This document shows positions 1,774 through 5,540 of a stretch of 22,183 nt of DNA, one piece after another. Source of the DNA: Candidatus Odinarchaeia archaeon (GTDB taxonomy: Archaea; Asgardarchaeota; Odinarchaeia; Odinarchaeales; Odinarchaeaceae); NCBI GenBank assembly GCA_029856525.1, contig JAHQXC010000013.1, positions 1 through 22,183 of the forward strand, in the 5' to 3' direction. The notes under the pieces were generated by a model. That model was not told the origin of the DNA and did not search any database. It saw only the letters and a program-made list of their open reading frames with translations. A program made the translations under genes and the position numbers. Position 1 is the first letter of the stretch; each line of letters begins with the position of its first letter.

Positions 1774-2505
1774 GTGAGTTTGAAGTTTGAAATAGACCGG
1801 AAATTTCTTAGTAGAATATTATCTAAGGAAGGTTTTAAAACTCTCGATTGTTTATTAAACGATGAAGAAATAAAGGAGATTTACGAAATCGGGGATTTAA
1901 TGGCTAGACTCGAGCATGAAACACCACACGATCACTCTCATGCTATAAGAGCTATGTGTATTTGCGCTGAACTTATAAAGCTTATTCAACGAACGAATCT
2001 CAGCTTAGAAGTCTATAAATTACTTGATAATAAATCTATGAATTTAGCGCTTCTTACAGCAAGCTACCTGCATGATATAGGTAATTTTATAAATAGAGAG
2101 GAGCACGCATTAGCGGGAGCGATGTTAGCGTTTAACATATTAGATAAATATTTCAAGGAGTTAGATCAAGGGCATCTTATTAAAAGCGTTGTTTGCCATG
2201 CGATAGCTGAGCATTCTCCTAGAAAAGTTTTACCTAGCACAGCTTATTCTTCAATAGTAGCTTTATCAGATAAACTTGACATCTCTCATATGAGGGTCTC
2301 AGGCTATAAGCCTTCAACTTTTAAAGAGTATTCTACCGGTGATGTTTTAAATATAGAGCTTAAACGATTGAAAGGGCGGATAATTATAGAAATAACTATA
2401 AGCCACCCCAGTGGATTATACAGGGTTGAAAACCTTAGAAACTATCTTAACATATATGATTTAATAAATAGATACTTTGAGATTACAGTTAAAAATGCTT
2501 TCTAG
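1774..2505 (+). CDS. HD-superfamily metal-dependent phosphohydrolase
   Basis: Motifs PHDHSHAIRA (first His), YLHDIGN (HD), REEH, IAEH and LSDKLD (terminal Asp) give the full metal-ligand set. Start is GTG 1774 or TTG 1780. Confidence 0.85.
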   Translation: MSLKFEIDRKFLSRILSKEGFKTLDCLLNDEEIKEIYEIGDLMARLEHETPHDHSHAIRAMCICAELIKLIQRTNLSLEVYKLLDNKSMNLALLTASYLHDIGNFINREEHALAGAMLAFNILDKYFKELDQGHLIKSVVCHAIAEHSPRKVLPSTAYSSIVALSDKLDISHMRVSGYKPSTFKEYSTGDVLNIELKRLKGRIIIEITISHPSGLYRVENLRNYLNIYDLINRYFEITVKNAF

Positions 2506-3599
2506 CTTTTCATCAACTCTTCTAGTTTAACAGTCCATTGTTTAATCGCTTTATTCAACTCTTTAAGCTCTTCACCGGTTATTTCATTCTTCGACTTAAT
2601 CCGGCTAATCCAAGCGTTAACGCTTATTAAAATAGGATGATTAGGGGGGATGAAGCGCTCCAAGCCGTTTTTAATAGAGATAATACTCTCTAATAATTGG
2701 TTTTCCTCTAGATAGGTGGCTGTTTCACCACTAACCTTCTCCAACCCCTGTAAAATATATGTTTCACAGATCTCCTTAAACACTTTTAAAATCTCATCTC
2801 TATCAGCTAAACTCCTAGATTTTATAGGGTATGTTTTGAAACCTAGAATATTTCCGACTACCCCTGCGTCTAAAGCATCCTTTCTATCCTGCATGTTAGC
2901 TAAACCCACCACCATGGTAGTTTCACTTACATGTTTTTTAAATGAGCCCCAACTCTCCATTGTAGCTAACAGATTAGGGGTTGTAGAGTCTGTCACTATT
3001 AAAATTATATCGCATCCGGATGCATATCTCTCCCACAGCCATCGATGCTCCTCTCTACCAGGTAGATCCCATAAGTTGACAACAGCCTCGCTTGTTATAT
3101 CAGTTAAAGTGTTTCCGTTAGCATCATTTGAAGGAATGTATACTTTGCTAGGCTCCTCTCTGTTTAAAATTTTGAATATAGAGGTTTTACCTGTATTCGG
3201 TTCACCTATCATAATCACTTTAAGAGATAGTGTGGGTGAAGTTATAAGCCTGGTTAAAATCTCGCTGAAGCCCTCTTTCTCATCTTCCGGTACCCCTCTC
3301 TCATTATCCCCATATCTGCGCCGGTATCTTTTAATTATTCTCGAAGCGTAATCTTCTAATACGTTTTCAATATCATCTATGTCTGAAAAAACCACTGCCG
3401 CGATCTCGCCCTCCACTTTAAAAACTATTTTAATGTTACCGATTATTAAATAGGCGAGTTTACTATCTGTTTTCTCTGTTTTTCTAATAATAGCTGTAAT
3501 AATACTCTCCTCGAAGACGTCGAAACTATTTTTCTCATTGAAAACCTTTTGAAATAGTTTTTTACCTGTTTTATGATAGATCTCAATTTTATTTATCAT
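2502..3599 (-). CDS. Longin-like domain fused to an Arf-like small GTPase with a helical C-terminal extension
   Basis: GTPase motifs: G1 GEPNTGKT, G3 WDLPGR, Arf-type RWLWERY and IIVTDS-like IILIVTDS, G4-like LANMQD. The N-terminal ~120 aa show a beta-hairpin/helix/3 strands/2 helices pattern (IEIYHKTGKKLF...LIIGNIKIVFKVEGEIAAVVFSD) typical of longin folds. Confidence 0.8.
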   Translation of the reverse strand: MINKIEIYHKTGKKLFQKVFNEKNSFDVFEESIITAIIRKTEKTDSKLAYLIIGNIKIVFKVEGEIAAVVFSDIDDIENVLEDYASRIIKRYRRRYGDNERGVPEDEKEGFSEILTRLITSPTLSLKVIMIGEPNTGKTSIFKILNREEPSKVYIPSNDANGNTLTDITSEAVVNLWDLPGREEHRWLWERYASGCDIILIVTDSTTPNLLATMESWGSFKKHVSETTMVVGLANMQDRKDALDAGVVGNILGFKTYPIKSRSLADRDEILKVFKEICETYILQGLEKVSGETATYLEENQLLESIISIKNGLERFIPPNHPILISVNAWISRIKSKNEITGEELKELNKAIKQWTVKLEELMKS

Positions 3600-3714
3600 T
3601 TTAACACCGTGTTCTCACTGCTTTTATAATACTTATATATTATTACCCACTAATAAATAAGCTAATAAATTAAATTTTTATCGTTTAAAACAACTTTCAG
3701 CGAGTTGATGAACG

Positions 3715-4269
3715 GTGAGCGGTCCGTTAAAATTCGTTTATAAAATAGTTGTTTTAGGAGACGGAGGAGTCGGGAAAACATGTTTAACTCTCACATTTGT
3801 TAAAAAAGAGTTTAAAACAGATTATATTCCAACTTTAGGAGTGGATATTTATACTAAAGATTTTAATCTAGGCCAAACCGTGATCACTTTGATTATATGG
3901 GATATTGCAGGTCAACAGAAATTCGATCTAGTTAGAAAACAATATTATAAGGGTACTCAAGGAGCTTTAATCGTATTCGATTTGACTAGAATAAATACTT
4001 TCCACAGCGTTGACACCTGGTATAAGGAGTTAACAGAGAACGCGGGTGAGCGCATCCCCATAGTTCTTCTTGGAAATAAAGTCGACGTAGAGGAGGGGAG
4101 AGAGGTATCAGCTGAGCAGTGTAGTCTACTAGCGAAAAAACTCGGATGCGAATATTTTGATACAAGCGCGAAAACAGGGAAGAATGTGGACCAAGCTTTT
4201 CTAACGCTTTTAAAAAAGATTATTCAATTAAATATAACTAGAAGGGAGAGCGTTAAAAAGGTGTTTTAA
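3715..4269 (+). CDS. Rab-like small GTPase (Ras superfamily)
   Basis: G1 GDGGVGKT, G2 YIPTLGVD, G3 WDIAGQ, YYKGTQGALIVFDLT, G4 GNKVD, G5 TSAK. No C-terminal Cys. Confidence 0.95.
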   Translation: MSGPLKFVYKIVVLGDGGVGKTCLTLTFVKKEFKTDYIPTLGVDIYTKDFNLGQTVITLIIWDIAGQQKFDLVRKQYYKGTQGALIVFDLTRINTFHSVDTWYKELTENAGERIPIVLLGNKVDVEEGREVSAEQCSLLAKKLGCEYFDTSAKTGKNVDQAFLTLLKKIIQLNITRRESVKKVF

Positions 4270-5540
4270 TGTCTATTCGCAGCGAGCTGGAAAACTTAAA
4301 GGTGAAAGCTGAGAAGGCGTTAAGTGAATTAGAAGATAAATATTTTAGAAAAGAAATATCCGAGGATCAGTATAAGAAGTGGAGGAATAGGTTAGAGGAT
4401 TACCTGAGATCTTTGCACAAGCAGATGGAGAGCGCCTCCTCTGAGGATACGCTCTCAGCGGAGCGGGCTTCACTATATGAGAAAAGTGAAACTCAAAAGC
4501 TTTTAACAGCGTTTCTAGATGAGAGACTGAAACGGCTTACACCTATTATGGATAAAGAATACGGTGTCAGATACCCTGAAGCTGAGAGGGTAACCGGTCT
4601 TTCACCTCTTGACACGGTTGCCTTAATAGATCAGCTAGCTGAATCTAATATTCTATCACCGTTAATCTACTCTAAGTCTATTAAATGTCCTAGATGCCGC
4701 TCAAATAATATACTAGCTCAATATGTATGCCCTTACTGTCAATCCCCAGACTTCGATAAAGGAAAAGTTATCGAACATTTTAAATGTCATTACATGGATT
4801 TCGAACTGAAATTTAAAAAAGAAGGCGAGCTTTTATGTCCCCGCTGTAATTCAACGCTTAAAAACCTTGGAGTAGACTACCAGAAGCACGGTCCATGGTT
4901 TAAATGCTCTTCCTGTGGTAAGTTTTTCGATGAACCTTTAGCTACATATAACTGCGGTGACTGCGGGTCTATTTTCGAACTTCAACAAGCCGTTTTTCAA
5001 TCACTTTACTCTTATACTTTGAATATGAATTATATTAGCGAGTATGAGAAAGTGACGATTCCATTAAAGGAACTTGAAAAACAGCTAGCTGAGAAGGGAT
5101 GGGTTTTAAAAACACCCGCCTTCATCATAGGTGTCTCCGGCTTAATGCATCAATTTTCAGCCGCGTTCTGGCTTAAAAAGGAAGGCGGGGATGTTATTCT
5201 ACCAGTTGACCCTGATATAATACTAGAAGTTTTCACATCTTCAACCGGTATAACCGCTGAGAAGGTTCTAAGCTTCGCGGTTAAAGCTCAAGATATTGAT
5301 TGTAGAATAAAATTGCTTGTAGGTATACCGAGATTTGAATCGAAAGCCGTGGAGCTTGCCGAGCATTATAATATTGATCTTCTAACTGTCCGAGACCGGA
5401 AAATGTTTGTTGAAACCGTTGCAAATTATATTTTAAGCAGGGAGGTTTCTGTAAGATTACAGCTTCAGACAGCTGAGACCTCTGCGTTAGAAGATGCTTT
5501 AAAAATATTAGAGGATAAGCTTATAGGTCAAGGCGGGTGA
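4269..5540 (+). CDS. TackOD1-like multi-zinc-finger protein with N-terminal SHOCT-like helical segment and C-terminal Mrr/PD-(D/E)xK-like domain
   Basis: Five CxxC plus one HxxC (CPRC, CPYC, HFKC, CPRC, CSSC, CGDC) with GVRYP and GVDY, matching the TackOD1 (PF18551) pattern as I recall it. N-terminal EISEDQYKKWRNRL. C-terminal GVSGLMHQF...ILEVF...AVELAEHYNIDLL. TAATG overlap with the GTPase gene. Confidence 0.75.
   Translation: MSIRSELENLKVKAEKALSELEDKYFRKEISEDQYKKWRNRLEDYLRSLHKQMESASSEDTLSAERASLYEKSETQKLLTAFLDERLKRLTPIMDKEYGVRYPEAERVTGLSPLDTVALIDQLAESNILSPLIYSKSIKCPRCRSNNILAQYVCPYCQSPDFDKGKVIEHFKCHYMDFELKFKKEGELLCPRCNSTLKNLGVDYQKHGPWFKCSSCGKFFDEPLATYNCGDCGSIFELQQAVFQSLYSYTLNMNYISEYEKVTIPLKELEKQLAEKGWVLKTPAFIIGVSGLMHQFSAAFWLKKEGGDVILPVDPDIILEVFTSSTGITAEKVLSFAVKAQDIDCRIKLLVGIPRFESKAVELAEHYNIDLLTVRDRKMFVETVANYILSREVSVRLQLQTAETSALEDALKILEDKLIGQGG

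Follow-up and report, generated by a model that had tools for sequence, protein, structure and literature searches.

A longin-Arf-like GTPase with an altered nucleotide pocket in Odin-type Asgard archaea

Introduction

The stretch of DNA analysed here, which we call the window, comprises 22,183 nucleotides of contig JAHQXC010000013.1 (GenBank assembly GCA_029856525.1) from a Candidatus Odinarchaeia archaeon. On its minus strand lies a gene whose protein joins a longin domain, an Arf-like small GTPase domain (G domain) and a helical tail in a single chain. In this longin-GTPase the canonical Thr, Gln and Lys of the G2, G3 and G4 motifs are all replaced, by Ser157, Arg182 and Met236. The gene and its parts are listed below; the Odin clade is the set of eight orthologous clusters to which the protein belongs, and P0008 is its basal member.

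2502..3599, minus strand: the whole longin-GTPase gene (protein P0001), 365 amino acids plus a TAG stop, with eight orthologous clusters in Odinarchaeia
3240..3599, minus strand: longin domain, residues 1-120, beta-beta-alpha-beta-beta-beta-alpha-alpha (AlphaFold2 (AF2), structure alignment, Foldseek, Pfam)
2775..3230, minus strand: Arf-like small GTPase domain, residues 124-275 (Pfam Arf, Foldseek, PDB profile search)
3183..3206, minus strand: G1 motif (P-loop) GEPNTGKT, residues 132-139, intact; G, GKT and S invariant in the Odin clade
3129..3140, minus strand: G2 motif (switch I) YIPS, residues 154-157, with Ser157 at the Thr position; Thr in P0008
3054..3071, minus strand: G3 motif WDLPGR, residues 177-182, with Arg182 at the position of the catalytic Gln; Lys in P0008
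2886..2897, minus strand: G4 motif NMQD, residues 235-238, with Met236 at the Lys position and N235 and D238 kept; NKQD in P0008
2808..2828, minus strand: loop PIKSRSL at the G5 position (beta6-alpha5), with Ser261 where relatives have Ala (alignment and AF2 model)
2505..2774, minus strand: helical C-terminal tail, residues 276-365, 90 amino acids; PPNHPI at 2631-2648, W330 and W355 invariant

Fusions of longin domains to GTPases have been described repeatedly in Asgard archaea. Five occur in Lokiarchaeum, where Arf-like proteins carry an N-terminal longin domain, according to a secondary account of the original study (Klinger 2016, as cited in PMC4917890). Rag family GTPases with a fused longin domain have been reported (Liu 2020, bioRxiv 10.1101/2020.10.19.343400), as have the architectures L-G, G-RB and L-G-RB in MK-D1 (Tran 2024, PMC10933270) and Asgard Arfs (AArfs) with longin N-termini (PMC11914678). 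Longin fusions of the ArfL type are reported to occur in Asgard archaea only and not to be directly related or ancestral to eukaryotic Arfs (bioRxiv 10.1101/2024.02.28.582541). The initial annotation of the window presented the gene as a longin-Arf-like fusion. The architecture is real, but it is not new, such Asgard fusions having been published since 2016. What is specific to one lineage, and uncharacterised, is the changed form of the nucleotide pocket.

Here we report a computational analysis of this gene, its relatives and its neighbours. The longin-GTPase gene is genuine and is conserved among Odin-type Asgard archaea. Its motif set is not a product of chance, because the Pfam Arf match is strong, eight protein clusters share the motifs, and the ratio of nonsynonymous to synonymous substitution rates (dN/dS) is about 0.12.

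Results

Motifs of the G domain

Alignment to Arl3 with HMMER places WDLPGR on WDIGGQ, NMQD on NKQD, IPS on TPT and GEPNTGKT on GLDNAGKT. Each motif is paired with its Arl3 counterpart, and the assignments are therefore right. Translation and alignment together bear out the readings GEPNTGKT, YIPS, WDLPGR and NMQD given in the initial annotation. Its statement that the protein has no SAK-type G5 also stands, the corresponding loop being PIKSRSL; in 138 Asgard relatives, described below, the G5 motif is A-I-D, likewise not SAK. Switch II comes next: from Arg182 the protein studied reads REEHRWLWERY, and the pattern EE.RWLW.R after WDLPGR is invariant in the Odin clade.

The pocket changes among relatives

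Are these substitutions usual in the family? A word-indexed search found eight protein clusters at 41-79% identity, and every named one comes from Odinarchaeia, including Ca. Odinarchaeum yellowstonii (P0002). Exhaustive search raised the number of relatives to 635. The same architecture, with 110-145 residues ahead of the G1 motif, is present in 111 of the 156 proteins examined. Named longin-GTPase relatives come from Odin-, Baldr-, Hel- and Ranarchaeia, and a structure-based comparison in the ESM Atlas adds neighbours from Thor and Loki clusters. We counted residue states column by column in 146 G domains, eight from the Odin clade and 138 from other Asgard relatives.

G3 Gln position: Odin clade Arg in 7, Lys in 1; relatives Gln in 125 of 138
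G4 Lys position: Odin clade Met in 7, Lys in 1; relatives Lys in 131 of 138
G2 Thr position: Odin clade Ser in 7, Thr in 1; relatives Thr in 131 of 138
G5 Ala position: Odin clade Ser in 7, Thr in 1; relatives Ala in 132 of 138

At these four positions, 91-96% of the relatives hold the canonical residue. The Gln and the NKxD Lys counts show that the substitutions are not the family norm. Nor are they the rule in a characterised clade, which would have told against the initial annotation. Gln is absent from 13 of the 138 relatives, which have K, R, D, E, H, A, L or T in its place, and a few lack the G4 Lys (F, M or H). Gln-less paralogues therefore arise repeatedly and independently in the family, if sporadically.

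The tree places the Odin clade on a long stem of 0.66 substitutions per site, with a support of 100 in the Shimodaira-Hasegawa approximate likelihood ratio test (SH-aLRT). P0008, whose motifs are WDMPGK, NKQD and YEPT, is sister to the remaining seven Odin clusters (support 99). The clade as a whole groups weakly (83) with DxPG proteins that keep the Gln, such as P0009 and P0010. Taken with the state counts, this topology indicates that the pocket changes are derived and specific to the clade. The order of events can be read from the same tree: Gln was probably replaced by Lys or Arg first, on the Odin stem, and the changes of G4 Lys to Met and of G2 Thr to Ser probably came later, in the crown group. 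At G5 the basal member has already exchanged the Ala for Thr, and the crown group has Ser.

The distribution of the gene is narrow. Among the genomes of the class that we examined, it is present in all four of the window's genus. In three genomes of the sister family (78-91% complete) we found canonical longin-GTPases only, and not this orthologue with its Arg, Met, Ser and Ser (R/M/S/S) set.

Selection on the gene

Does the altered pocket signal decay? Against the two closest orthologues dN/dS is the value of about 0.12 quoted above, a measurement limited to these two pairs as dS is saturated for more distant orthologues. Mean pairwise identity is 68% in the G domain as against 47-48% in the longin domain and tail. 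The residues that bind phosphate, Mg and guanine (G132, G137-K138-T139, D178, G181, N235 and D238) are all invariant in the Odin clade, as are E183, E184, R186, W187, L188, W189 and R191 of switch II. Among the substitutions themselves, Thr to Ser preserves the hydroxyl, and Ala to Ser falls at a backbone contact. These data indicate a functional gene under purifying selection. They suggest that nucleotide binding has been retained and that the switch II interface is under constraint. Decay, or a pseudo-GTPase free of nucleotide, is disfavoured because selection is purifying, conservation is highest in the G domain and the binding residues are invariant.

Canonical paralogues have been retained in this genome as well. 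The atypical copy is therefore a specialised one, for which they serve as natural controls. One paralogue is a longin-GTPase of 303 amino acids with WDFAGQ, NKQD and no tail, at C85:5728-6573 (L009:1435-2346, minus strand); the other is a stand-alone Arf-like GTPase of 165 amino acids on C110 (L010:1480-1977).

The longin domain

Structure prediction bears out the longin fold that had been proposed for the N-terminus. Folded alone by AF2, from an alignment with 111 relatives, the N-terminal domain reached a predicted local distance difference test score (pLDDT) of 93.8. With VIA-align the full-length domain matched the VAMP7 longin domain at Z 14.3 over 114 amino acids at 2.4 A, followed by Sec22 (Z 13.2), sedlin (Z 12.7), and sigma and mu adaptins and TRAPP subunits (Z 11-12.6). 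Foldseek returned sigma and zeta adaptins and VAMP7. Matches to SRX (Z 9.7) and to the GATOR1 and Lst4 longins (Z 9.0-9.2) were weaker, and roadblock proteins, at Z 8.5-9.9, covered residues 1-97 only. When Pfam was applied to 111 N-terminal domains, Fuz_longin_1 matched in 11 (best E 3.5e-9), Clat_adaptor_s in 6 and Longin in 2; in the protein studied Fuz_longin_1 matched residues 10-86 weakly. The predicted structure thus confirms a true longin fold.

A longin domain of a GTPase-activating protein of the FLCN, NPRL2 or SMCR8 type would be expected to show a conserved arginine finger in a loop. No such residue is present in the beta-hairpin loops of the longin domain in the Odin-clade alignment; the invariant R87 and R91 sit in helix alpha2. 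This helix ends in a strongly basic run, RIIKRYRRRYG (3315-3350, residues 84-95), with R87, R91, Y96 and G97 invariant in the clade. The run could serve as a binding patch.

The Arf-like domain and the tail

The G domain matches Pfam Arf with 51 bits (cut-off 22.3, E 1.6e-13). Roc (41.5 bits) and Ras (32.4 bits) also exceed their cut-offs, and SRPRB (22.1 bits) falls under its own, 25. NCBIfam offered only its generic small_GTP domain for the longin-GTPase, under the cut-off. Foldseek matched the domain to HodArfR1-GTP (8ouk) and Arf6-GTP, each with a template-modelling (TM) score of 0.80, and to Arl8b (0.78); NRAS Q61K-GTP (8vm2) was also among the fold matches. A search of the PDB with a profile of the clade put Arl8, Arl5 and Arf6 at the top and Rab7 just below. 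As modelled, the G domain resembles Arf proteins in their GTP form.

AF2 applied to the whole protein, with an eight-sequence alignment, gave a pLDDT of 81 and three parts: the N-terminal domain, a Ras-like domain and long helices. These helices span residues 264-314, 322-336 and 342-364, and the C-terminus contains no strands. No transmembrane segment or other membrane anchor was found in the protein, the maximum 19-residue hydropathy being 1.4.

The conserved helical tail did not figure in the initial annotation. Its motif, LPxN/SxPIF...WI, and the three-domain layout recur in P0009, in P0010 from Baldrarchaeia, in P0161 from Helarchaeota, and in P0011 and P0015, all of which keep the Gln. 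Because tail motif and layout are common to these Gln-keeping orthologues, the Odin proteins are orthologues of an older three-domain Asgard protein and not a new fusion. A feature search of the ESM Atlas with residues 280-365 gave no usable match. In P0011 (465 amino acids) and P0015 (455 amino acids) the helical tail is extended by a Cys-rich C-terminus with several CxxC pairs, resembling a zinc ribbon or RING; these ends echo the zinc ribbons of the TackOD1 protein encoded next to the Odin gene.

The gene neighbourhood

The genes that flank the longin-GTPase in the window are as follows.

1774..2505, plus strand: HD-domain phosphohydrolase (Pfam HD), convergent, its stop overlapping that of the longin-GTPase
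3600..3714, no strand: AT-rich spacer of 115 bp between the divergent longin-GTPase and Rab-like genes (from reading of the sequence only)
3715..4269, plus strand: canonical Rab/Ras-like GTPase with GDGGVGKT, YIPT, WDIAGQ, NKVD and TSAK (Pfam Ras, 191 bits)
4269..5540, plus strand: TackOD1 zinc-ribbon protein (Pfam TackOD1, 124.8 bits), its start overlapping the Rab-like stop at 4269

We compared seven Odin loci, the window and L001, L002, L003, L016, L017 and L018. At all seven the longin-GTPase stands back-to-back with the Rab-like GTPase, whose orthologues are 61-93% identical. The Rab-like stop overlaps the TackOD1 start or lies just before it, again at all seven; the overlap of the two genes suggests an operon. 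TATA-like runs face both ways in the spacer and may be back-to-back promoters. A search for RNA sequencing runs listed none, which bears on expression in neither direction. An HD-size gene lies tail-to-tail with the longin-GTPase at every locus, with a Pfam HD match in six and none recorded in L016. At five of the loci a winged helix-turn-helix (wHTH) gene of 367-386 amino acids follows TackOD1. The core arrangement is constant despite differing outer flanks in L003 and L016. This conserved synteny reflects co-inheritance within close kin, and it is suggestive of a joint function.

TackOD1 was originally defined as a response-regulator output (PMC5847659), and no receiver-domain match was found in the TackOD1 protein of the window. 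For the TackOD1 and wHTH proteins NCBIfam yielded no helpful match. In the three sister-family genomes, no TackOD1 match exceeded the cut-off. A predicted complex of the longin-GTPase with its Rab-like neighbour scored 0.00 against a mark of 0.32, and as such gives no verdict, neither for nor against binding.

At the convergent gene ends, the palindrome CTAG at 2502-2505 supplies a TAG stop on both strands, one for the HD hydrolase and one for the longin-GTPase. The 4-bp overlap is repeated in L001, L002, L016 and L018, and is not found in L003 and L017.

Gene pairs and clusters around other family members were also seen. In a sister-family genome (G001), L025:1492-3823 holds a canonical longin-GTPase of 281 amino acids (FDFAGQ/NKQD) divergent from a Ras-like GTPase gene, and the same pair is present at L026 and L027; pairing of longin-Arf-like and Ras-like genes therefore recurs with other paralogues. 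The Ras-like open reading frame at L025 runs into a Peptidase_M20-like region, and may be a fusion or two genes. Outside Odin, P0009 and the Baldrarchaeia protein P0010 are encoded in a conserved cluster unlike the Odin neighbourhood (L004:4576-12716 and L006:1-7125), which contains KaiC-like ATPases (PF06745) and an Elp4/PAXNEB-like ATPase together with large proteins that lack annotation and an archaeal prepilin peptidase (Arc_PepC_II). An Nre gene adjoins P0009, as it does in the Odin window. Near the Odin P0008 locus, too, there is a KaiC-like gene (L003:2077-2817).

Comparison with known proteins

The protein shares with the published Asgard longin-GTPase fusions a longin domain directly N-terminal to an Arf-like G domain. 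It clusters with Asgard proteins of this architecture, inside a tree of about 110 of them. Unlike these relatives, with their largely canonical residues, it has replaced the G2-G5 signature residues (R/K, M, S, S). It also differs in its 90-residue PPNHPI tail, its fixed neighbourhood and its restriction to part of the Odinarchaeia. Closer still are the canonical three-domain orthologues P0010, P0161, P0009, P0011 and P0015, which have the same layout and tail motif; P0009 and P0010 are also DxPG proteins. They differ in keeping the Gln, the NK/RxD motif and the Thr, in their gene neighbourhood (P0009 and P0010) and in the Cys-rich end of P0011 and P0015.

Eukaryotic Arf family proteins and Asgard ArfR proteins (HodArfR1, GerdArfR1) are the best matches to the G domain, at TM 0.75-0.80, and the P-loop Asn of Arl2, Arl3 and Arl8 resembles that of the Odin protein. 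Unlike them, the Odin protein begins with a 120-residue longin domain, has no N-terminal amphipathic helix and lacks the catalytic Gln. LRRK2 Roc has an Arg at the Ras Q61 position, in DxxGREE, and the Pfam Roc match of the Odin protein was noted above; yet the Odin protein is without COR, kinase and leucine-rich repeat domains, and Arf outscores Roc. The shared Arg is a convergence, not a sign of membership.

The initial annotation compared the fusion to the longin domain of SRalpha and SRbeta. In SRalpha SRX/SRbeta-GTP a longin-type domain is indeed paired with an Arf-related GTPase, and the SRbeta G3 motif is DLPGH, which the Odin DLPG resembles. The parallel holds as an analogy and goes no further: the two are separate chains in the SR complex, SRX scores Z 9.7 against the Z 12-14 of the better longin matches, SRPRB stays under its cut-off, and the Odin protein has no membrane anchor.

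Three identities were tried and rejected. A Rag/Gtr protein would end in a roadblock domain; here the C-terminus is three helices, and there is no Gtr1_RagA match at E <= 0.01. SRbeta was rejected on its 22.1 bits against 25 and on the lack of a transmembrane helix. A Roco (Roc-COR) protein was rejected as only the 90-residue helical tail follows the G domain, with no COR match. In a literature search, which was not exhaustive, no paper dealt with atypical G motifs in longin-GTPases of Odin or other Asgard archaea, and none with the R/M/S/S set, the motif in the tail or the gene neighbourhood in Odin.

Discussion

How might a Ras-like switch work with such a pocket? The reading that we favour, and to which we give an evenly balanced chance as a whole, is a GTP-loaded docking switch in which Arg182 senses the gamma-phosphate, hydrolysis is slow and nucleotide binding is looser. 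The protein would be a functional signalling protein of three domains, the longin domain, the Arf-like G domain and the helical tail. It would still bind guanine nucleotide and Mg, as suggested by the invariant P-loop GKT, G3 Asp and Gly, and G4 Asn and Asp, with the Ser retaining the Mg-binding hydroxyl. The canonical Gln-water mechanism would have been abandoned. Arg182 would touch the gamma-phosphate and order the invariant switch II in the GTP state. Intrinsic hydrolysis would be slow, and loss of the G4 Lys would loosen nucleotide binding, to judge from Ras K117 mutants; because of these two effects the protein would be mostly GTP-loaded and would act as a docking switch that depends on GTP. 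Partner surfaces would be provided by the longin domain and tail, probably for the products of the neighbouring genes, the Rab-like GTPase, TackOD1 and the HD hydrolase. This scheme builds on the folds, the motif states, the derived and clade-restricted nature of the changes, the purifying selection, the canonical paralogues and the synteny set out above. It also has a precedent in LRRK2 Roc, a working GTPase with an Arg at the site equivalent to Q61 (DxxGR); that Arg has been described as sensing the gamma-phosphate and ordering switch II (PMC13345514, PMC4781896).

Several points weigh against it. Ras Q61R and Q61K mutants are hydrolysis-deficient, and by that analogy a fully locked state is possible. 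The idea that changing the Lys to Met speeds exchange has its source in the Ras K117 mutants, and faster exchange would apply here only by analogy with them. The model of the whole protein has a predicted TM score (pTM) of only 0.60, so it does not give the relative arrangement of the domains. Synteny among related genomes of a single class is a weak guide to function. Finally, LRRK2 Roc still hydrolyses GTP, and its R1398L mutation raised GTPase activity and did not lock the protein (PMC4781896). This outcome is the opposite of that in Ras, and the Arg alone does not decide the matter.

A second explanation is that the protein is a true cycling GTPase, as LRRK2 Roc is able to hydrolyse GTP with an Arg at this site. 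Hydrolysis would then be completed through Arg182 in a dimer, as in Roco proteins and LRRK2, or by a residue from a partner, either an inserted catalytic residue of the kind that RapGAP provides for the Gln-less Rap or one from a longin/roadblock GTPase-activating protein. Longin and roadblock domains are usually dimeric platforms, and those of Asgard archaea dimerise (PMC10933270). The invariance of switch II across orthologues only 41% identical is what one expects of a catalytic or partner interface, and the 13 losses of Gln among 138 relatives suggest that alternative mechanisms are tolerated. However, the longin domain shows no invariant loop Arg of the FLCN/NPRL2 type, and a COR domain is absent, with no Pfam COR match. 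We regard a cycling GTPase as possible, if on the unlikely side.

Could the protein be a permanently GTP-bound scaffold that never cycles? Gln has given way to Arg or Lys in all eight clusters, Ras Q61R and Q61K are GTP-locked, and the GTP-bound NRAS Q61K structure (8vm2) is among the fold matches. The initial annotation had offered a GTP-locked or pseudo-GTPase from the Ras Q61R analogy alone; a claim so founded is undercut by LRRK2 Roc, a GTPase in spite of its Arg. The analogy failed for LRRK2 in that R1398L raised GTPase activity (PMC4781896), and the coordinated changes in G2, G4 and G5 point to an adjustment of how nucleotide is handled and not to a plain block. We consider a locked scaffold improbable. 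Least probable is a nucleotide-free pseudo-GTPase, or a protein of changed base specificity, with the G domain as a structural module only. Four of the five G motifs are off consensus, but there is no variation in the P-loop GxxxxGKT, in Asp and Gly of G3, or in Asn and Asp of G4, the Asp being the residue for guanine specificity. Conservation is highest in the G domain, dN/dS of the gene is about 0.12, and the Thr-to-Ser and Ala-to-Ser changes are conservative.

A bolder reading can be put forward. The protein might be an Arg/Lys gamma-phosphate-sensor GTPase that arose independently of LRRK2 Roc and is the atypical member of a module with two GTPases, in which its longin domain and tail dock the Rab-like GTPase and TackOD1. 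We think this improbable. If true, the module would be a prokaryotic counterpart of the eukaryotic pairs of canonical and atypical GTPases, such as Arl13B-Arl3, and of longin platforms, in a small, fully sequenced genome.

No new kind of system emerges from this finding. Its importance lies in the setting: Asgard small GTPases and their longin and roadblock regulators form large, mostly uncharacterised sets that bear on the origin of the eukaryotic membrane and signalling switches. Within them the Odin clade is a clean natural experiment, in a very small genome (1.3-1.4 Mb) with only a handful of GTPases. Four pocket residues have been changed and then fixed under purifying selection, and a canonical paralogue, canonical orthologues and a fixed neighbourhood accompany them. 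The clade is thus tractable for asking whether longin-GTPase fusions pair with Rab-like GTPases, and how a Ras-like switch works without the catalytic Gln and the G4 Lys.

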